Source of the DNA: Minisyncoccota bacterium
GTDB taxonomy: Bacteria; Patescibacteriota; Minisyncoccia; UBA6257; GWB1-50-10
NCBI GenBank assembly: GCA_035573955.1
Contig: DATLZO010000019.1
Span: 161 to 64,160, forward strand
DNA: 64,000 nt
Direction: 5' to 3'
The translations under genes and the position numbers were made by a program. The notes beneath the pieces are model-generated. The model saw only the letters and a program-made list of their open reading frames with translations. It did no database searches and was not told where the DNA came from. This document shows positions 5,265 to 39,227 of the stretch, one piece after another. How positions within the stretch are numbered: the stretch's first letter is position 1; each line of letters starts with the position of its first letter.

Positions 5265-5960
5265 GTGTCAAAAAAGGGAAAGCTTATCGTAATAGACGGC
5301 ATTGACGGATCAGGAAAGGCTACGCAGACGGCTCTTTTAGAAAAGCGATTGCGGAAAGAAGGCGTCAAAGTTAAGAAAATTGACTTTCCCAGATATTACG
5401 ATAATTTTTTTGGCAAACTCTTGGGGAAGTGTTTAGCCGGTGAATTCGGTGATTTTACAAAAGTGGATTCCCGGATTGCTTCCGTTTTATATGCCGCCGA
5501 TAGATTTGAATCAAGCGGCAGCATGCGAAAATGGCTTTCGGAGGGGTATGTAGTTTTGGCCGACAGATATGTAAGCGCGAATCAAATTCATCAGGGAGGG
5601 AAAATTCATTCTCCGGCCGAAAGGAAAAAGTTTTTAGATTGGCTTGATGTTATGGAGCATGGCGTGTTTGGAATTCCTCGCCCTGATTTAGTGATTTATT
5701 TGGATGTCCCCTATGAGGTAAGCCGGGAATGGCTCAAGAACAAAGTGGCTGGATGGAAAAGGAGGTATTTGAACGGTAGGAAGGATGTAGCAGAAGATAA
5801 CCTGGTTTACTTGCGTGATTCGCGAGCAAGCGCTTTGGATTTAGTGAAAAGGAACAAAAACTGGCATAAAATCACCTGCTGCAAAGGGATGATTTGCATG
5901 CTGCCGGAAGAGATTCACGAAAGAGTTTTCAAATTAGTGATGAGAAAATTGAAGGTTTAG
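5265..5960 (+). CDS. tmk: thymidylate kinase
   Basis: KLIVIDGIDGSGKATQTALL P-loop, DRYVSANQIH LID region. Confidence 0.88.
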   Translation: MSKKGKLIVIDGIDGSGKATQTALLEKRLRKEGVKVKKIDFPRYYDNFFGKLLGKCLAGEFGDFTKVDSRIASVLYAADRFESSGSMRKWLSEGYVVLADRYVSANQIHQGGKIHSPAERKKFLDWLDVMEHGVFGIPRPDLVIYLDVPYEVSREWLKNKVAGWKRRYLNGRKDVAEDNLVYLRDSRASALDLVKRNKNWHKITCCKGMICMLPEEIHERVFKLVMRKLKV

Positions 5961-24499: not shown

Positions 24500-24586
24500 G
24501 CGTCGGTGGCAGAGTGGTCAATTGCACTTGACTGTAAATCAAGCGCCCTTCGGGCTACGTAGGTTCGAATCCTACCCGGCGCACCA
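24500..24586 (+). tRNA. tRNA-Tyr (anticodon GTA)
   Basis: manual cloverleaf: acceptor GCGTCGG/CCGGCGC, anticodon loop CTGTAAA, long variable arm, encoded CCA. Confidence 0.85.
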
Positions 24587-24762
24587 GACATGAAAAGTCA
24601 AAGAGTTTTGGTTTGTCTCGCTTCGCTCGACGGCCATTTTGTATTTGGATTTTCGGGGCAAAAACGAATTGGCGATTTTGAAGGAAGAAAAGAAAATTTC
24701 TTAATTATTGATTTTCTGGGATTTTGACTAAAAAACAGAAGAAATGTTGATTTTTGTTGGGA

Positions 24763-24791
24763 TTGACATAAGGCTTTAAATATGCTAGATT
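24763..24791 (+). promoter_or_regulatory. putative promoter TTGACA-17-TAGATT for the GC-rich gene pair
   Basis: read directly. Confidence 0.45.
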
Positions 24792-24863
24792 TTCATTAGT
24801 AAACAATCGAGCTATTGTGGCTTGATTGCAGCACATTTCAACAAGCGAGGAGGTTGCAAAACC

Positions 24864-25148
24864 ATGATGACGATGGCGGTCCGCTATCCGTTCCTGTTTC
24901 TGTTCAGGATCACCGGTCAACTCACTCCGCTCTTCGAGCGCGCGAACTACACGGCGATCGGTTTCTCCGGTCATGTTTCGATGCTCGACGAGGACATTGC
25001 AAAGGAGCGCAAGCTCAAGCCGCTCAACCGCTTCGAGCGATGGCTCTTGAAGCCCATCATCGAGGACGAACAGACGCGGCGTCGCGAGTGCTTCTGGCAA
25101 GCCATCATCGAGGTCACAGGAAAAGGCCCGGACACCGACTGGTCGTGA
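24864..25148 (+). CDS. hypothetical protein (94 aa), GC-rich, SD-bearing
   Basis: GAGGAGG upstream of ATGATGACGATG; local GC clearly above the flanks; long antisense ORFs reflect that GC. Confidence 0.5.
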   Translation: MMTMAVRYPFLFLFRITGQLTPLFERANYTAIGFSGHVSMLDEDIAKERKLKPLNRFERWLLKPIIEDEQTRRRECFWQAIIEVTGKGPDTDWS

Positions 25149-25181
25149 ACGAAATCCAACCAACCACGAAGGAGGCGCTGC

Positions 25182-25430
25182 ATGGCACAGACTGCAACGA
25201 CAGCGACGAAGAACAAGTTCGGGAGCAATCAGTTCCCGATCCACTACGAGGGTGGCTACCTGCGGGTTTACACGAACCCGTCAGGTGAGCTCTTCGTAGA
25301 GGACACCCGTTCAGGTGTCTCGATGCGGATCAATCCGTCTCATCCTGGTGGTCTCCAGTTCACCACCGATGGCCGGGTCGAGCCCATCCGAGTCACCAAC
25401 ACGATCGGGTGGTGTGTCGAACGTCGCTAG
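25182..25430 (+). CDS. hypothetical protein (82 aa), GC-rich, SD-bearing
   Basis: AAGGAGG-7 nt-ATG; followed by a terminator. Confidence 0.55.
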   Translation: MAQTATTATKNKFGSNQFPIHYEGGYLRVYTNPSGELFVEDTRSGVSMRINPSHPGGLQFTTDGRVEPIRVTNTIGWCVERR

Positions 25431-25454
25431 ACTAACGAGCTTCGCGCTCGGTCA

Positions 25455-25497
25455 GAACCCACCATGTCACAAGACCTCTGGTGGGTTTCTTATTTTT
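25455..25497 (+). terminator. rho-independent terminator
   Basis: AACCCACCA...TGGTGGGTT stem followed by TCTTATTTTT. Confidence 0.55.
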
Positions 25498-25756
25498 GAT
25501 TTATTCCATTATTTTTATATAATGCATTTGTATTCGCTTCGCGAATTCTGAATTAGTTGCCGCCAAAGAAAAATTGGAGATTGTTAGATCTCGCGGCGAA
25601 GCCGCACCAAAATTCGCAGGTGGTTCCTCGCCGCCGCAGGCGGCGAAAACGGTTCACGCTATTTCAAGAATAGAGCACATCGCCACCAGCACGCTCTGCG
25701 TGAGGTGGCACCACTCGGAATAAATGATATCCTACGGTATAATTTATTCCTCGCTT

Positions 25757-25831
25757 GCCACCTTAGCTCAGCGGTAGAGCAACTGTTTTGTAAACAGTAG
25801 GTCCTCGGTTCAAATCCGAGAGGTGGCTCCA
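25757..25831 (+). tRNA. tRNA-Thr (anticodon TGT)
   Basis: manual fold: acceptor GCCACCT/AGGTGGC, anticodon loop TTTGTAA, T-arm CTCGG-TTCAAAT-CCGAG, CCA encoded; TGgTATAAT-like -10 about 15 nt upstream. Confidence 0.85.
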
Positions 25832-25839
25832 AAAGCGAC

Positions 25840-25912
25840 GCCAGAGTAGCTCAGTCGGCAGAGCACATCCATGGTAAGGATGGGGTCGGGAGTTCGATTC
25901 TCCCCTCTGGCT
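25840..25912 (+). tRNA. tRNA-Thr (anticodon GGT)
   Basis: acceptor GCCAGAG/CTCTGGC, anticodon loop ATGGTAA, T-arm GGGAG-TTCGATT-CTCCC; CCA not encoded. Confidence 0.85.
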
Positions 25913-25952
25913 CAAAATTGATTTTTAGTCGCGGATTATCTATCCTATTATC

Positions 25953-26123
25953 GTGGCTCAATCAAAACTCAAGGAAAATCTAGTTAGGCTGAAGTGCACG
26001 GTTTGCAACCGGGTGAATTATTTCACGCGCAAGAACAAGAAACAGGTGGAGAGGAAATTGGAATACCGTAAATTCTGTACGTGGTGTAGGAAACATCAGT
26101 TGCATAAGGAAGCGAAAAAATAA
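25953..26123 (+). CDS. rpmG: 50S ribosomal protein L33 (GTG start; absent from the ORF track)
   Basis: translation VAQSKLKENLVRLKCTVCNRVNYFTRKNKKQVERKLEYRKFCTWCRKHQLHKEAKK; L33 zinc ribbon CxxC...CxxC. Confidence 0.75.
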   Translation: MAQSKLKENLVRLKCTVCNRVNYFTRKNKKQVERKLEYRKFCTWCRKHQLHKEAKK

Positions 26124-26197
26124 GGGGTCATAGTTCAATGGCAGAACGTCGGTCTCCAAAACCGATAATGGGGGTTCAACTCCCTCTGACCCCGCCA
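26124..26197 (+). tRNA. tRNA-Trp (anticodon CCA)
   Basis: acceptor GGGGTCA/TGACCCC, anticodon loop CTCCAAA, CCA encoded; classic rpmG/tRNA-Trp neighbourhood. Confidence 0.85.
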
Positions 26198-26247: not shown

Positions 26248-26276
26248 TTGACGTTTATAATTTAATCTGATATAAT
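26248..26276 (+). promoter_or_regulatory. near-consensus promoter TTGACG-17-TATAAT
   Basis: read directly; drives the downstream GC-rich gene region. Confidence 0.5.
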
Positions 26277-26489
26277 TTAGAAAGCACAATTAAGGTTTTC
26301 TTAGTCAAGCTGTTCATCGGTTTCGTTTTTATTTATCTGGGTGTTCTCTTGCTGCTGGTAGCTATCGTGGGTGTTCTTCTACTGACACGGCGGTATCTCC
26401 AGTGGCGTGGAGAGCAGAAGATAATGAAAATGGCCAGTCTCCTGTTGTTTTCTCCAGCTAAGGAAGCCATAACGTACAAGGAGGATGCA

Positions 26490-27059
26490 ATGCAGCTCAA
26501 GAAGCGGATTAAGGCGCTCTTCAGTAGCAGTAGCGCCGAGAAGTTGCTCGCGGCACTCATGCCCGCGCTGCGGGAACTCCGAGCTAACCTGCGCTCGGTG
26601 GAATTCTCCAGGGACCCGCTCGCGGACATCATCCGATTTTTCAACTTCGTGTCTCCGTGGCAGGATCGCGGGCTCCGCGATGTGATCGCGGCCTTCAGAG
26701 ACGTGAACTACGGCCAGTACGACGATGTGCTCGAGAAGCTCAAGACGCTCCAACTGCACTTCGAGCGCGCGGGTCGGAGCAAGTACGGTTGGAATAGAAC
26801 CAAGCCCGGCGAGACCGTGACCGAGGACAACGTCTATCTCGGGAACATCTTCGGTCTCTGGACCAAGACCGTGCGGTTCTGGAAGGAGAGGAAGAACGAG
26901 CCGAAGGGCGGTTGGGGATTCTCTGGTATGGAGCACCTCAACCCCTACGACGTCGTCTCGGAGCAGGCCCGGAAGTATATGGAGACCCACATCGGTCCGA
27001 TGTGGGAGCTCATCACGGGACTCGACCAGCACGTGAGGCAGCGAGTCAGGGCCGCGTAG
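26490..27059 (+). CDS. hypothetical protein (189 aa), GC-rich, SD-bearing; possible N-terminal extension to 26349
   Basis: AAGGAGG-5 nt-ATG at 26490; protein-like composition on + strand, whereas the overlapping 230-aa minus ORF looks like GC-driven antisense. Confidence 0.5.
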   Translation: MQLKKRIKALFSSSSAEKLLAALMPALRELRANLRSVEFSRDPLADIIRFFNFVSPWQDRGLRDVIAAFRDVNYGQYDDVLEKLKTLQLHFERAGRSKYGWNRTKPGETVTEDNVYLGNIFGLWTKTVRFWKERKNEPKGGWGFSGMEHLNPYDVVSEQARKYMETHIGPMWELITGLDQHVRQRVRAA

Positions 27060-27084
27060 TTGTATCACCACCTTTCAAGCGAAC

Positions 27085-27127
27085 AAGGGGCTATCCGAAA
27101 GCATTCGGACGGCCCCTTTCGTTTTTT
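27085..27127 (+). terminator. rho-independent terminator
   Basis: AAGGGGC-TATCCGAAAGCATTCGGACG-GCCCCTT then TCGTTTTTT. Confidence 0.6.
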
Positions 27128-27156
27128 GGCCGACGTGTTAAATTAAAGGTGACAAT

Positions 27157-28140
27157 ATGCCTCAAACTCCTAAAAAACTTCGGGTGGCGGTTTTGATGGG
27201 CGGGCCTTCGGCCGAGCATGAGGTTTCCTTAAAAAGCGGCAAAATGGTTTTGGATGCCCTGCCGCGCGATAAATACGAAGTAAAAAAAGTTTTTATAGAC
27301 AAAGATGGCGTCTGGGAAATTCCTCCATCCGAGTTGAAGAAGAACGTAGATGCCGTGTTTATTGCCCTTCACGGGACCTACGGTGAGGACGGTGTCGTCC
27401 AAGACATTTTGGATGCGGAAGGGATTCCATATACTGGTTCCGGCGCGAAAGAGAGCGCGCTTTCCATGAACAAATATCTCCTGACACGGCTTCTGAAAGA
27501 GGAAGGGTTCAGTGTCCCGCGGACGGAACTCGTCACCGTCGCCGACTGGCGCATGAAGCCTTCTGAAATTATCCATAAGATAAGGCACTATTTCGGTTAT
27601 CCGATAGTCGTGAAACCGAACCAGAACGGCTCTTCAGTCGGCGTTTCCATTGTGAGGGGAGAGGAAGGTTTAACTGGTGCTTTTAACGAGGCGTTCCGGG
27701 TTGGCCGCGAGGCGCTTGTCCAGGAATTCATCGTTGGCCGAGAAATGACCTGCGGTGTTATCGATTCCGGTTTCGTAGGGAGCGAGTTCGCTCTTTTACC
27801 TACAGAAATAGTGCCGAGAGTGAGCGACTTCTTTGATTATCGTGCAAAATACGAACCCGGCGCCTCCGATGAGATAACGCCGCCGGATTGCCCTGGCCAT
27901 ATTCAAAAAAAGATCCAGAACACAGCAAAATCGGTTCATAAGCTCGCCGGTTGCCGCGGTTTTTCCCGCGTTGATATGATCCTCGCGAAGAACAGCGAGA
28001 TATTTGTTCTGGAGATAAACACTATTCCGGGGCTCACGGAGCAAAGCTTACTGCCCAAAGCGGCTCTCGCTTCCGGCATCGCCTTTCCGGAACTTCTCAG
28101 CAGAATTGTTTCCGCCGCTTTCATTACTGTGAAAATCTGA
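27157..28140 (+). CDS. ddl: D-alanine--D-alanine ligase
   Basis: LRVAVLMGGPSAEHEVSLKSG, IALHGTYGEDGVVQDILDAEGIPYTGSG, ATP-grasp C-terminus. Confidence 0.9.
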   Translation: MPQTPKKLRVAVLMGGPSAEHEVSLKSGKMVLDALPRDKYEVKKVFIDKDGVWEIPPSELKKNVDAVFIALHGTYGEDGVVQDILDAEGIPYTGSGAKESALSMNKYLLTRLLKEEGFSVPRTELVTVADWRMKPSEIIHKIRHYFGYPIVVKPNQNGSSVGVSIVRGEEGLTGAFNEAFRVGREALVQEFIVGREMTCGVIDSGFVGSEFALLPTEIVPRVSDFFDYRAKYEPGASDEITPPDCPGHIQKKIQNTAKSVHKLAGCRGFSRVDMILAKNSEIFVLEINTIPGLTEQSLLPKAALASGIAFPELLSRIVSAAFITVKI

Positions 28141-28141
28141 C

Positions 28142-28783
28142 GTGACTCTTGAACGTCTCATAAAGGAACTTATCCGCGACGGCTATCTCAAATCGCCGGC
28201 CGTGATAGAAGCATTTGAAAAAGTGAAGCGCGCCGATTTCATTCCCGAAAAAGCAAAGGAGATGGCTTACGAGAACATTCCGCTTCCTATCGGCCACGGT
28301 CAGACTATTTCTCAACCATTAACCGTTGCCTTTATGCTGGAACTTTTGGAACCTAAGAAGGGGGAGAAAGTTTTGGACATTGGTGCCGGAAGCGGCTGGC
28401 AGACGGCGCTCATATCCCACCTCGTGGGTGATAGCGGGAAAGTAGTTGCCATCGAACGGATACCTGAACTGCGGGCGATGGCGGAGGAAAACGTGACTAA
28501 ATATGGTTTTACGAAGGATATCGCGAAAATAGTTCTTGCCGACGGTTCGAAAGGCTATCCGGACGAGGCGCCCTACGACAAGATTGTGGCCGCCGCTTAC
28601 GTGAAGCGGATTCCGGAGGCCTGGAAGGAACAACTGAAGATAGGCGGACGGATAGTCGCCCCGGTTGGAGAGGAAATAACTGTTCTCGACAAAACGGGGC
28701 CTAATACTTTCGAAAAGAAGCAATTTTTTGCCTTTCTTTTCGTCCCTTTAGTCGAGGGAACGGTTGGGGATAGCACTTCTTGA
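28142..28783 (+). CDS. pcm: protein-L-isoaspartate O-methyltransferase
   Basis: IGHGQTISQPLTVAFMLELL, VLDIGAGSGWQTA SAM motif; GTG start. Confidence 0.87.
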   Translation: MTLERLIKELIRDGYLKSPAVIEAFEKVKRADFIPEKAKEMAYENIPLPIGHGQTISQPLTVAFMLELLEPKKGEKVLDIGAGSGWQTALISHLVGDSGKVVAIERIPELRAMAEENVTKYGFTKDIAKIVLADGSKGYPDEAPYDKIVAAAYVKRIPEAWKEQLKIGGRIVAPVGEEITVLDKTGPNTFEKKQFFAFLFVPLVEGTVGDSTS

Positions 28784-28912: not shown

Positions 28913-29570
28913 TTAAAGTCCGACGGATTTCATCCTCGAGCGCCACTTGATAATTTCAAATTGGGCAAGAAGATGAACTTTTTTACAAGTTCAGGGTCTT
29001 CTAGTTAAAGTAATCGAGCAGAGATAAATTACTCAACAGAGTAAGTTACTCAAATTAAGGGTGGATGGTGGATGCCTAGACACCGAACGGCGAAGAAGGA
29101 CGTGGCGTAGCTGCGATAAGTCTCGGGGAGGTGCGTAGCAACCTTTGATCCGGGAATGTCCGAATGGGGAAACCTGGTAGAGCAAACCTCTATCACTTCA
29201 ACGCAAGTTGAAGAGCGTACCCAGGGAACTGAAACATCTAAGTACCTGGAGGAGCAAAGAACAATAGTTTATTCCGCAAGTAGCGGCGAGCGAAAACGGA
29301 AGAGCCTAAACTGAGCTTTCGACGCAAGTCGGACGCTCAGGGTTGAAAGAGTGAGAACGTCTTTCGAGCTTGAAAGCTTTGAGCTTGAAAGGAGAAGTTA
29401 CAAATCCATTGGTTAGTTGAATCCGCTGGAAAGCGGAGCCATAGTGCGTGATAGCCGCGTAAACGAAAACCAGTGGACTTCTCAGTTTTTATTTCTTAAG
29501 TACCGCGAGGCCAACTAACCTTGTGGGAATCCGGGAGTACTGTCTCCTAAGGCTAAATACGTTCGGCGAT

Positions 29571-29607
<37 letters not shown>

Positions 29608-29672
29608 CAGCCCGGTTAGGGCGGTGAAATAGTACCTGAAACCATCCACTTACAAGGAACAGGAGCTTTATC

Positions 29673-29836
29673 GCTATCGCTCAAAGTTCCTAAATTCTAA
29701 GCACGAAATCCAAAATTCTAAATAAATTCTAAACTCCAATGTTCAAGATTCAAAACGTTTTGAACATTTGGATTTTAGTGATTGGAGTTTGTTTAGGATT
29801 TAGAAATTAGAAATTAGGATTTGGAAACTTCGAGCG
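29673..29836 (+). other. AT-rich hairpin insertion (IVS-like) at the 23S helix-25 site
   Basis: ~160 nt imperfect palindrome of TTCTAAA/TTTAGAA-type repeats between GGAGC and the conserved GAGTGACTGTGTGCC. Confidence 0.6.
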
Positions 29837-30526
29837 GTAGCGAGGAGTGACTGTGTGCCTATTGAAGAATGAGCCAACGAGTTTACGTACGCTGCAAAGT
29901 CTAAGCCCCCTCGGGGGTGGAGGCGCAGCGAAAGCGAGTCTTAATAGGGCGAATTTAATCAGTAACACAAGCCTTTTAAGAGGATTGTGTTACCGGTTAA
30001 TAAGCAACGTGCGTAAGACCCGAAACCAGACGAGCTTGCCCTGGCCAGGATGAACTCCCGCGAAAGCGGGAGGGAGGTCCGCACCGGTGAGTCGTGCAAC
30101 GCTCTCGGATGAGCTGGGGTAAGGAGTGAAAAGCTAATCGAGTTTGGTAATAGCTGGTTCTCTCCGAAATAGTTTTCGGACTAGCCTCATATGTTTCCTT
30201 TTGGAGGTAGAGCACTGGAAGATGCGAACAGGGCGCAAGCTCGTCGCATCTATCAAACTCCGAATGCCAAAGGGTAAAAGTATGGGAGTCAGACTGTGGG
30301 GGCTAAGCTCCATGGTCGCGAGGGGAAGAGCCCAGATCGCCGTCTAAGGTCCCAAAGTTCGTACTAAGTGTCAAAGGTAGTTCGTGTCCACAAACAGATA
30401 GGAGGTTGGCTTAGAGGTAGCCATCCTTTAAAGAGTGTGTAACAACTCACTATTCGAGGACGCGGGCGCCAAAAATTTACCGGGGCTCAAGTACGACACC
30501 GAAGACGCGGGCCGTTGCGGAGCAAC

Positions 30527-30645
30527 GGAAATCCTAAATCCAAAATCCTAATTTCTAAACAAATCCCAAATCTCAAAATCCAAAACTTTTTTGAGTTTGG
30601 AATATTTGAATTTGTTTAGGATTTAGAGATTAGAATTTAGAGTTT
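30527..30645 (+). other. AT-rich hairpin insertion (IVS-like) at the 23S helix-45 site, homologous to the helix-25 insertion
   Basis: flanked by GGAAA/TTTCC; shares TTTGTTTAGGATTTAGA(A/G)ATTAGAA with the 29673-29836 insertion. Confidence 0.6.
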
Positions 30646-32048
30646 CCGTCGCTTCGCGACGGCGGTAGGAGAGCATTCCTTGTGCTGCGAAGTCCGATCC
30701 GTGAGGGCGGATGGAGCGCAAGGAAGAGAGAATGTTGGCATGAGTAATCAGCAAAGCGCGTGAAAAACGCGCTCCCCGCAAATCCAAGGTTTCCTCCGCA
30801 ACGCAAATCGACGGAGGGTTAGGCGGCCCTAAGGCGATGGCGAAAGCCGCAGCCGAAGGAGTGCCGGTTAATATTCCGGCCCACCATGCATTTTCGATGG
30901 GGTGACGGAACGCAGTAAGTTCGGTGCCTTAATGGTTTGGCATCCTTGACCGAGAGTGAATTCCAGGGAAATCCGGAATTCTGTCTTCAATGACGAACTT
31001 CAGGGTAGAGGCGAGGCGAGGTTTTTACCTTGCCAAGCGGACCGAGCGCGTTTCCTAGAAAAACCTCTAAGGTTAAAGTGCATAGTTCCGTACCGTAAAC
31101 CGCCACTGGTGGATGAGGCGAGTAGCCTAAGGGGAACGAGTGATTTCTCGCTAAGGAACTCGGCAAAAAAGCTAGGCGTAACTTCGGGATAAGCCTTGCC
31201 TGCCGCAAGGCAGGCCGCAGCTAAAGTTTCTCTGGCGACTGTTTACCAAAAACACAGCTCCCTGCGAACTCGCAAGAGGATGTATAGGGGGTGACACCTG
31301 ACCGATGCGAGAAGGTTAACGGCGGGGACGTTGCGCAGCAATGTGCAAGGTTCACTGCCCGAAGCCCTCGTCAATGTCAGCGGTAACTATAACCGTTCTA
31401 AGGTAGCGCAATTCCTTTCCGGGTAAGTTCCGGAGCGCACGAAAGGTGTAACGACTGGAGAACTGTCTCAGCGAGAAGCTCGATGAAAATGCGATACCCG
31501 TGAAGACGCGGGTTACCGGCAGCAAGACGAAAAGACCCCGGAAGCTTTACTGCAGTTTGGTATTGTTATTAACGTTTGGATGCGTAGCGTAGTGGTGAGC
31601 CTTCGAAGCCGGGATTTCGGTTCCGGTGGAGGCGACAATGAAACAGCCATCTTTCAAGTGTTAATATCTAACCTCTAGGGCCAAAAACCTAGAGGGACAG
31701 TGCCTGACGGGCAGTTTAAATGGGGCATTTTCCTCCTAAAAAGTAACGGAGGAGTCTATTAAGGTCAGCTTGGCGCGGATGGAAATCGCGCCGGACGTGC
31801 AAAGGCATAAGCTGGCTTGACTGCAAGGCTGACAAGCCGCGCAGGCGCGAAAGCGGAGCTTAGCGACCCGACCATTCTTTATAGAAAGATGGGAGACAAC
31901 GGCTAAAAGTTACTCCGGGGATAACAGGCTAGTCTGGTCCGAGAGTCCCTATCGACGACCAGGTTCGGCACCTCGATGTCGGCTCATCACATCCCGGGGC
32001 TGGAGAAGGTCCCAAGGGTTTGGCTGTTCGCCAATTAAAGTGATACGT

Positions 32049-32089
<41 letters not shown>

Positions 32090-32127
32090 TGTTGTCGGCG
32101 TTAATGCTTGAGGGAAGTCGTCCCTAG

Positions 32128-32892
32128 TAAACGACAAATTGCTACTTCACGAAGTAATTCGTGATGACAAAGCGGCTAATAACGGTGGAATCTTAATATT
32201 TGATTATCACCATCGGTCTTGGTGATAATTTACTTGAGGACCAAGAGATGTTAAGATAATACCGTGGGAAGTCGGTCTAACATTCACTATGCGTACATTG
32301 CGGGTTTCCTCGATGGTGACGGAAGCCTCATGTTGCAGGTGAAGAAACGCAAAGAAGGGAAATTGAAACGGCGTTTCATGTTCACGATTTGTTTTTATTA
32401 AGACAGTCGTCATGAACGTCCGCTTTTCTGGATTCGTAGAGTGCTCGGCATTGGTTATATTTCCCGTCGGAATGACGGTATAACCGAGCTGCGCATCAAC
32501 GGTTACAAACAAGCTGCGAGAATATTAAGGGAACTACTGCCGTTTCTAAAATTCAAGAAGCGGCAGGCGGAGGCAATATACAGCGCGGCAAAGCTTTTAG
32601 CGCAAAAGGCGCGAAAAAGATTAACGCGGCAGGAATTGCAGCGGCTTGTGAACTGGATCCTTGTAGTTCAAAAAGAAAACTACGTTACCAGAAAAAAGAA
32701 AACGAAAGCTGATTTCTTGAAGATGTTAGATTTGACCCCGTAACGACTTGTTCCGGATGGCAAGTCCGGACGGAGTTGGAAAATGCGAAGCTATCATTTT
32801 TCAGCTAATACGCCGCCTCCAAGCCCCGGTTTTGAGAAAACTGGAGCTGGATGAAGATATAGTCTACGCACGTAGTGATACGTGGTTACGTG
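32128..32892 (+). mobile_element. group I intron in 23S domain VI, splitting CCUAGU^ACGAGAGGACC at the sarcin-ricin loop
   Basis: exon sequences rejoin to the conserved SRL; intron ends in G; GATATAGTC P7-like core; contains the LAGLIDADG ORF. Confidence 0.7.
32264..32743 (+). pseudogene. intron-encoded single-motif LAGLIDADG homing endonuclease (I-CreI-like) with an in-frame TAA at 32399-32401
   Basis: YIAGFLDGDGS motif; GIGYI...LPFLKFKKRQAEA aligns to I-CreI; the stop falls where I-CreI has Gln (CAA to TAA). Confidence 0.65.
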
Positions 32893-32971
32893 ACGAGAGG
32901 ACCGGGATGAACGAACCTCTGGTCTACGAGCTCTACCACCAGGTGGAATGCTCGGTAGCTATGTTCGGACG

Positions 32972-33005
<34 letters not shown>

Positions 33006-33049
33006 CTCCCAAGATTAGGCGGAGCGTCCTCTGTACAAATTCCGCGATT

Positions 33050-33290
33050 ATTGGCCAGAAAGATTTTTTATATCTGGCTAGGCGCGAGGAGTGATGTGTA
33101 GTCGAAGACTACATGAGCGACGAGCAACAACGCCAGAAGAAAAAAGATTCTGGCCCGTAGGGAAGCTCAAAATTAAGCGATCTCTGCGTTGCTCCTCCTC
33201 AATGTGGTTTTCGACCACACTTTCGTCGTCGCATCTTGAGCTCATCATAATTTTGAGCTTCCAATACATCGTGGCATTTGTGCAGAGGGC
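33050..33290 (+). other. ~230-nt expansion insertion near the 23S 3' end (helix ~98 region)
   Basis: between CATCTAAGCGCGAAGCCTCTCCCAAGATTAGG and GTGGAAGACTACCACGTTGATAGGCC, where E. coli has ~50 nt; several local hairpins. Confidence 0.45.
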
Positions 33291-33459: not shown

Positions 33460-33574
33460 TTGCTGGTGTTTCACTCGCACGTGCTCCACCTCTTCCCATT
33501 CCGAACAGAGAAGTGAAAGCGTGCGAGCCTGATGATACTGCGCTTCGCGCGTGGGACAGTAGGGTATGCCAGCA
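33460..33574 (+). rRNA. 5S rRNA
   Basis: CCATTCCGAACAGAGAAGTGAAAGCGTGC...GGGACAGTAGGGTATGCCAGCA; ~80 nt after the 23S. Confidence 0.85.
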
Positions 33575-33611
33575 TACAAAAGCCCTGGTGCTTTTTGTTT
33601 GGAGCGGTTCC

Positions 33612-38789: not shown

Positions 38790-38833
38790 TTTCCGGGCTT
38801 GCTTTTTACCAAAAAATGCGCTTATATTGTTTT

Positions 38834-39193
38834 CGGTAAGTCAAGCGATAGCTCCGATTCCGCAAGGTTTTGGAGAGGAAAGTCCGGACACCCTCCCGGC
38901 CGTGCGCCGGGATAAAAATGTAGCGGATAACGTCCGTCGTCCGCAAGGATAGAGGTGCGAGCAGTGACGTCCCGAGCCGAAAGGCGAGGGAGGACCTAAT
39001 CTCAAGCTAATCGGTCCAATCCCGCGATAGAGATAGAAAAGCGGGAGTGAAACGGCTAAATCCTTACAGGGTGCAAGGCTGTGCCCCGGGAGACCGGGGA
39101 ATGCCGCTCGAGTCCGGGAGTAATCCCGGTCCTAGATGAATTATCGCTAAGGTGTATAATCACCCGAAACAGAATCCGGCTTACGACTTACCG
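38834..39193 (+). ncRNA. rnpB: RNase P RNA (bacterial type)
   Basis: GAGGAAAGTCCGGAC (P4 5' strand) and ACAGAATCCGGCTTAC (P4 3' strand); P1 pairing CGGTAAGTC/GACTTACCG; terminator follows. Confidence 0.85.
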
Positions 39194-39195
39194 CA

Positions 39196-39227
39196 GAAAC
39201 CCGCCGCAAGGCGGGTTTCTGTTATTT
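39196..39227 (+). terminator. rho-independent terminator of rnpB
   Basis: GAAACCCGCC-GCAA-GGCGGGTTTC then TGTTATTT. Confidence 0.6.

Follow-up and report, generated by a model that had tools for sequence, protein, structure and literature searches.

The group I intron Cr.LSU of the Chlamydomonas reinhardtii chloroplast 23S rRNA gene, inserted at L2593, belongs to subgroup IA and carries the gene for the homing endonuclease I-CreI in the loop of P6. It resembles the intron described here in being a group I intron of LSU rDNA domain V/VI, and I-CreI is, like the product of the gene described below, a single-motif LAGLIDADG protein of roughly 160 amino acids and of the homodimer type. The two systems differ in their host, a chloroplast in one case and a bacterium in the other, and in that I-CreI is intact and active. 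The site considered here is L2656, and the DNA target is therefore different.

Genes for homing endonucleases follow a life cycle of invasion, fixation, degeneration and loss. The model of this cycle by Goddard and Burt is said to have been built on the yeast mitochondrial omega intron. For a bacterial host, likely to have a single rRNA operon, re-invasion would need DNA from another cell.

The closest described system is 23IS14, an insertion at position 2657 of the 23S rRNA of CPR bacteria (Patescibacteria), which comes from a survey of 348 CPR 23S genes (Tsurumaki et al., 2024, J Bacteriol, PMC11270868). According to that paper, 23IS14 belongs to the sites whose group-I-like insertions mostly code for LAGLIDADG_1 proteins, and it was previously unreported in other bacteria. 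The same text describes endonucleases that are fragmented or shortened by stop codons, as well as ORF-less introns at these sites; it cites Brown et al. for the removal of CPR rRNA insertions from transcripts, and Goddard and Burt (its ref. 43) for the life-cycle model. It also reports on I-ShaI, from a 23S intron of Ca. Shapirobacteria, which like the present family is a single-domain LAGLIDADG_1 enzyme of a CPR rRNA intron. I-ShaI cuts the DNA of its own insertion site and dimerises, which supports activity for the class (PMC11270868). It is closest to I-CeuI (42% identity in that paper), and is thus likely to belong to a different 23S site; it is intact, whereas the copy described here is truncated.

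The present locus lies in a 64-kb stretch of DNA (the window) from a Candidatus Paceibacterota (Patescibacteria/CPR) bacterium, a third-party-assembled MAG. It has an insertion at 2656/2657 in a Patescibacteria genome, which is group-I-like and holds a LAGLIDADG_1 ORF, and the published "position 2657" is the same site. Host clade, rRNA position, intron class and the single-domain LAGLIDADG_1 protein are all shared with 23IS14, and we see no essential difference. The original prediction, which did not recognise this as a common rDNA intron site, was mistaken on that point: 23IS14 is one of the standard CPR 23S sites (PMC11270868), and a scan of one genome per species finds a relative of the endonuclease in at least 537 Patescibacteria genomes. 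PMC11270868 presents neither a secondary structure nor an enzyme assay for this site, and the structure and census given here add detail only.

We conclude that the insertion is very probably a self-splicing, IA-like group I intron of the 23IS14 family, placed between U2656 and A2657, with a dead LAGLIDADG gene in its P6 loop.

[quoted passage not shown] The 5' exon ends at 32128 with the letters CCCTAGT, and the 3' exon begins at 32893 with ACGAGAGGACC (both read as DNA). This split of the exon had been predicted, and the Rfam bacterial LSU model aligns across it, leaving a 773-nt unaligned insert within the UAGUAC...GAGAGGACC loop. With the model limited to 32050-33100, ...GUCCCUAGUA was aligned, 773 nt were skipped, and the alignment resumed in the 3' part of helix 95. 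In E. coli rrlH the motif CCTAGTACGAGAGGACC begins at 2651, which places the split between U2656 and A2657, in agreement with the predicted insertion near U2656.

Of the predicted span, the 3' end at 32892 and the terminal G were right, and the 5' start at 32128 has to be moved one base later, to 32129. The intron and the 3' exon both begin with A, so that a one-base shift of the boundary is formally possible. The boundary given here follows from the group I rules, by which the exon-terminal U pairs with G and the last base of the intron is a G. The identical junction, TAGT/A...G/ACGAGAGGA (slashes mark the splice sites), with the gene inside the insertion, is found at 75 of 83 related loci, all of them in Patescibacteria.

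Table 1. Features of the 23S rRNA locus, the intron and the endonuclease pseudogene (window positions).
Feature	Position	Strand	Remarks
23S rRNA gene with intron	29048..33150 (3' end approximate)	+	Rfam LSU_rRNA_bacteria 2158.8 bits; alignment continues past the intron in the 3' part
Group I intron, 764 nt	32129..32892	+	after E. coli U2656, sarcin-ricin loop
P1	32125-32130 (exon UAGU + intron AA) / 32139-32144 (UUGCUA)	+	wobble U32128·G32141; fold agrees
P2, 7 bp, GUAA tetraloop	32147-32153 / 32158-32164	+	compensatory changes in 7/7 pairs
P3	32172-32176 (GCGGC) / 32812-32816 (GCCGC)	+	changes on both sides in 4/5 pairs
P4	32183-32187 / 32260-32264	+	near-invariant
P5	32190-32196 / 32251-32257; extension 32197-32250	+	P5 covaries
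P6	32266-32273 (GGG[AA]GUC) / 32734-32739 (GACCCC)	+	ORF in loop; covariation in ORF-less relatives
LAGLIDADG homing endonuclease pseudogene, 159 codons	32264..32743	+	GTG start; normal stop TAA 32741-32743
Premature TAA, codon 46	32399..32401	+	CAA or CAG (Gln) in relatives
P7	32745-32748 (GACU) / 32861-32864 (AGUC)	+	presumed guanosine-binding helix; 70/70 invariant; placement fixed by P6
P7.1	32752-32758 / 32764-32770	+	hairpin between P7 and P3'
P7.2	32774-32785 / 32795-32806	+	hairpin between P7 and P3'
P8 hairpin	32817..32853	+	4/5 basal pairs covary in family; window fold with one-base bulge
J8/7 (AAGAUAU) + P7 3' strand (AGUC)	32854-32860 + 32861-32864	+	invariant GAAGAUAUAGUC = RF00028 consensus
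P9, 6 bp, GUGA tetraloop	32869-32874 / 32879-32884	+	5/6 pairs covary; 100% of cells paired
Terminal G (omega G)	32892..32892	+	precedes 3' exon ACGAGAGGACC; G before ACGAGAGGA in 75/75 introns listed
5S gene	33461-33575

A pairwise alignment of the window 23S gene to E. coli showed no further introns, only short non-intron expansions. There are four such further insertions, at 29309-29380, 29674-29841, 29952-29999 and 30511-30663 (about 72, 168, 48 and 131 nt, following E. coli positions of approximately 270, 547, 651 and 1163-1185 respectively), and none of the four has an Rfam intron match. Those at 547 and 1163-1185 occupy what we take to be the classical intervening-sequence sites of helix 25 and helix 45.

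The 64-kb window holds no 16S rRNA gene, and in it the 23S-5S pair stands alone. Protein genes (26271-28783) lie directly upstream of the 23S gene, with four tRNAs at 24500-26194, and the rRNA operon of this genome appears to be unlinked. An RNase P RNA at 38833-39198 is barely above the Rfam threshold (112.9 against 100 bits).

The endonuclease gene and its premature stop

Read in frame from the GTG at 32264, the gene gives MGSRSNIHYAYIAGFLDGDGS...FY-stop-DSRHE...GIGYISRRNDGITELRINGY...LPFLKFKKRQAEA...LDLTP-stop, and the predicted motifs YIAGFLDGDGS, GIGYI and LPFLKFKKRQAEA are all present. With codon 46 read as Gln, it matches Pfam LAGLIDADG_1 with a single motif, at 40.1 bits against a cut-off of 23.1 (E 7e-10). 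The best relatives of solved structure are I-CvuI, I-CreI and I-MsoI, with E-values of 1e-10 to 1e-15 as single chains (about 1e-12 for I-CreI), and the gene is I-CreI-like, as had been proposed.

Three of the four alignments shown place codon 46 on the conserved Gln of VTQ (I-CreI), FIQ (I-MsoI) or VFQ (I-CvuI), and by our own count on the I-CreI sequence this Gln is the active-site residue Q47. A second residue, D19 of GFLDGDGS, aligns with ..GFVDGDGS of I-CreI (catalytic acidic residue D20) and is invariant in the family. The alpha-beta-beta-alpha-beta-beta-alpha fold calls for an uninterrupted frame, which the TAA at codon 46 breaks in the window copy. This copy is a pseudogene of the single-motif LAGLIDADG family and not a working member of it.

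All 24 aligned homologs have Gln at position 46. Of the ORFs of 74 relatives, 48 encode this Gln by CAA and 14 by CAG, the other 12 being offset by indels in this simple count; and the window has T at 32399 where all 69 aligned relatives have C. These counts uphold the single CAA to TAA change of the original prediction.

In other respects the window intron is typical of its family. We compared the window with the 287 alignment columns that reach a conservation of 90% or more among the 69 other introns. It deviates at five of them, which is mid-range, the individual family members deviating at between 1 and 17. The five are T32399, two synonymous third-position changes, one gap in the P5 extension and one position just 3' of P9; the rest of the ORF keeps every residue that is invariant in the family. 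The nonsense codon is therefore the only lesion, and the sequence comparison indicates that the inactivation of the gene is recent.

A lone base change in a metagenome-assembled genome, in a reading frame otherwise so intact, could also be read as a sequencing or consensus error, or as a minority variant, in which case the true gene would have CAA, the endonuclease would be intact and the intron mobile. Stops of this kind may be artefacts, as Tsurumaki et al. caution (PMC11270868), and just one of 98 other introns (see below) is in the same state. Against this, a separately assembled Logan contig (L083, run SRR7882662) is 100% identical to the window over 947 nt (32049-32995), TAA included. 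Since this contig may share reads with the MAG, it rules out a fault of assembly, though not a systematic error in the reads. C-to-T transitions are frequent among real mutations, and although a short T run adjoins the site (TTTTTATTAA), the change is a substitution and not a length error. A 38-mer around the stop, in its C or its T version, had no match in the metagenome scan, and hence no sister strain with CAA is demonstrated. On balance we think it improbable that the TAA is an error, and prefer to regard it as a genuine nonsense mutation.

That the TAA might be read through, or recoded as Gln to give a full-length endonuclease, is suggested by its position exactly at a conserved Gln codon, but is unlikely in the extreme: of the 71 long ORFs in the window 34 end in TAA, more than in either of the other two stop codons, although all three are in use; UAA ends the window ORF itself and nearly all those of its relatives, just before an invariant CGACU; and we know of no UAA-to-Gln code in bacteria. 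The genetic code is standard.

Structure of the ribozyme

Rfam did not find the intron at the gathering threshold. With an E-value setting, it gave a match to Intron_gpI (RF00028) of 24.4 bits, below the gathering score of 50 (E 7.5e-4). The match covers the 3' half only (P8-J8/7-P7-P9), including GAAGAUAUAGUC; the 480-nt ORF in L6 and the P7.1/P7.2 hairpins are outside the model. As no match reached the threshold, we worked out the structure from relatives. It was derived by inspection from an alignment (A2) of 70 distinct introns, namely that of the window and 69 others, with 12 nt of each exon. The Rfam scan foreseen in the original prediction thus stayed below threshold, and it is the structure of the relatives that bears out the junctions.

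In this alignment of 70 introns, 95.1% of cells hold standard pairs, and 27 of the 48 pairs show compensatory changes, that is, changes on both sides. Controls in which the partners were slid by 1-3 columns were 36-54% paired, with 11-14 compensatory pairs, and none of 500 shuffles reached the observed pairing values. The covariation is carried by P2, P3, P5, P8 and P9. P4 and P7, and P6 among ORF-containing relatives, are invariant or nearly so, and were therefore assigned from their consensus position. The U·G of P1 and the three exon pairs adjoining it are invariant in all 70, while the extension pair varies between AU, GU and GC. Segments of the window fold as modelled, with z of -3 to -4.8, the short P9 segment excepted. 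For the P4/P5 segment (32183..32264) z is -4.76, and for the P7.1/P7.2 region (32752..32806), where relatives have hairpins of differing sequence in the same place, it is -3.10.

The positions of P6 and P7 come from the ORF-less introns, which read GGGAAGUC-hairpin-GACCCC. In these the inner pairs of P6 change from GUC/GAC to GAC/GUC (L140, L147, L115), GUA/UAC (L187) or GUU/AAC (L165). This covariation puts the UAA in J6/7, and makes the invariant GACU that follows it the 5' strand of P7. Placing the 5' strand of P7 after the stop codon identifies the variable hairpins that lie between it and P3' as P7.1 and P7.2. The P7-like element originally noted, GATATAGTC, is present at 32856-32864.

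Two other pairings were considered and rejected. P6 as AAGUCG/CGACUU flanking the ORF is ruled out by the GGG[AA]GUC/GACCCC covariation, and is broken by L006, L043 and L080. A 5' strand of P7 at GCUA, just before P3', is ruled out since the variable P7.2 hairpin uses this segment as its 3' strand.

Hairpins P7.1 and P7.2 between P7 and P3' are reportedly the hallmark of subgroup IA, a rule said to go back to Michel and Westhof in 1990. With these hairpins, and with the ORF in the P6 loop, the architecture of the intron is IA-like.

The insertion is a genuine group I intron, as had been predicted, with a covarying structure from 70 relatives, a U·G pair at the splice site and a terminal G. Bacterial 23S rRNAs also contain intervening sequences, which CPR 23S genes carry at other sites (PMC11270868), and a sub-threshold Rfam intron score would be in keeping with an element of that type, excised by RNase III without ligation and leaving the 23S rRNA fragmented within the sarcin-ricin loop. 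Such an element would not account for the full group I core with its covariation, for the invariant splice-site U·G and terminal G, or for the J8/7-P7 consensus, and the long terminal stem of RNase III type is absent. Moreover, a nick within the sarcin-ricin loop is the very action by which alpha-sarcin inactivates ribosomes. An intervening sequence has a negligible chance of being the right description, and the group I intron is retained in what follows.

The ends of the gene overlap the ribozyme. The GUG start belongs to the 3' strand of P4, and the 5' strand of P6 is made up of codons 2-4; the last codons (L-T-P) supply the 3' strand of P6, and the UAA lies in J6/7, adjoining P7 (window 32260-32273 and 32734-32748). 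The protein ends, MGS... and ...LTP-stop, are invariant because the coding ends overlap ribozyme helices.

The peripheral parts are more variable. The window intron lacks uuuGGUCuGUUGAUAAC, the 5' strand of P5a (A2 columns 108-128; window 32197-32212), a segment that most relatives have; L017 and L044 likewise lack it. What remains at P5a in the window refolds into a longer P5 stem and a small CUUG/CAAG hairpin. Some relatives (L008, L027, L032 and L048) have a P9 extension, in which 15-150 additional nt separate P9 from the 3' splice site; the L008 intron (1823-2743) is 921 nt long, with unrelated-looking sequence past P9.

No P10 pairing of the 3' exon with the guide region was found. It is worth adding that the loop GGUCC of the P5-extension hairpin is strongly conserved across the family (window 32213-32218, UCGGUC; A2 columns ~169-176). 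It is complementary both to CUUGAGGACCAG in the intron (GAGGACC, 32236-32242) and to CGAGAGGACCGG in the 3' exon (GGACC, 32899-32903), two sequences that resemble each other. The exon GGACC makes up the 3' half of the sarcin-ricin loop (E. coli 2663-2667). By a permissive pattern, 17 of 94 metagenome introns have the loop-like motif but have GGACC nowhere in the P5 region. As the loop is kept in members without the internal GAGGACC, the exon may be its partner; the pairing partners are invariant, which makes covariation uninformative here. One might speculate that the loop tethers the 3' exon as a substitute for P10, delaying the folding of the sarcin-ricin loop before ligation, in an intron-exon contact tailored to the site. 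We consider this proposal doubtful.

The intron family and the decay of its endonuclease

A protein search gave 2994 homologs. The best 120 of these 2994 are 65-78% identical to the window protein, nearly all 159 aa long, and all from Patescibacteria by name; homolog lengths run from 156 to 165 aa. All 74 of the relatives' ORFs are intact and have a GTG start, but these 83 loci and 74 ORFs were picked by protein similarity and are therefore biased towards intact genes.

A second sample was assembled from metagenome contigs, comprising 98 distinct complete introns picked only by the intron 3' end and the exon, ignoring the ORF. An intact endonuclease gene is present in 68 of these introns. One has a full-length gene with a single in-frame stop, four have partial remnants of 25-94 codons, and 25 have no similarity to the endonuclease. 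The introns of this last group are 292-669 nt long, with the exception of L124. In several of them only the first and last few codons of the ORF are left, for example GUCGAUCUAAA...UUAGGUUUGACCCC in L121, L149 and L112, from which it follows that these arose by internal deletion. The family thus shows every stage of the life cycle: intact, single nonsense, partial deletion and ORF-less.

The intron with the single stop, L182, is a 769-nt intron on a metagenome contig, with its stop at codon 29 (QIKK-stop-SDNG). It shows that the single-nonsense state of the window recurs independently.

The exceptional L124 (metagenome contig ERZ1292630...1419) is an 811-nt intron whose end lies near 5584, and it occupies the same sarcin-ricin-loop site. 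In it a different ORF, of 134 aa, replaces the LAGLIDADG gene and matches Pfam 23S_rRNA_IVP (78.9 bits, E 4e-22), so that a group I intron here harbours the gene of a "23S intervening-sequence protein".

Many of the carrier genomes (L006, L015, L021, L024 and others) were deposited as "uncultured Candidatus Saccharibacteria bacterium", as TPA MAGs. Saccharibacteria are essentially without rRNA introns according to Tsurumaki et al. (PMC11270868). The names of the deposits may be generic; otherwise this exception does not hold absolutely.

Roughly one family member in four retains the ribozyme but has no endonuclease. Splicing in the family is therefore independent of the protein, which supports the view that the window intron probably still splices.

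On the basis of these observations, we propose the following mechanism. P1 would form between the exon end UAGU and the internal guide GCUA, with the wobble pair at the splice site. The 5' splice site would be attacked by an exogenous guanosine that P7 (G32745-C32864) binds; the terminal G32892 would then fill the same pocket, and ligation of the exons would restore the sarcin-ricin loop. In the intact relatives the endonuclease would act as a homodimer, cutting intron-less sarcin-ricin-loop DNA (the putative target being GTCGTCCCTAGTACGAGAGGACCGGGATG) and driving the copying of the intron into the cut DNA. In the window copy, the C-to-T change at codon 46 would truncate the protein to 45 aa, past the first helix and beta-hairpin. 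The truncation is at the Gln aligned with I-CreI Q47, so that the endonuclease would be dead and the intron would no longer home. The ribozyme would be unaffected, and the intron would persist as a passenger. In terms of the life cycle the window copy would be at the earliest degenerate stage, the first step in the degeneration and loss of the homing endonuclease.

For the annotation of this genome, the two parts of the 23S gene on either side of 32129-32892 should be joined, and both ORF fragments assigned to a single pseudogene. Beyond annotation the significance is small: both the intron family and the decay within it are known from earlier work on CPR bacteria, and the window case is an ordinary one. 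To this the present analysis adds a covariation-backed structure for the site, a count of the states of the ORF, and evidence against the TAA being an assembly artefact. The window copy provides a clean example of the earliest decay of a homing endonuclease, with one nonsense codon at the active-site Gln and otherwise no damage. The locus also confirms that the sarcin-ricin loop, among the most conserved and critical sequences of rRNA, tolerates a group I intron in CPR bacteria. Copies with a dead ORF or none persist at a place where precise restoration of the rRNA is essential, and this argues that the ribozyme splices without its protein.
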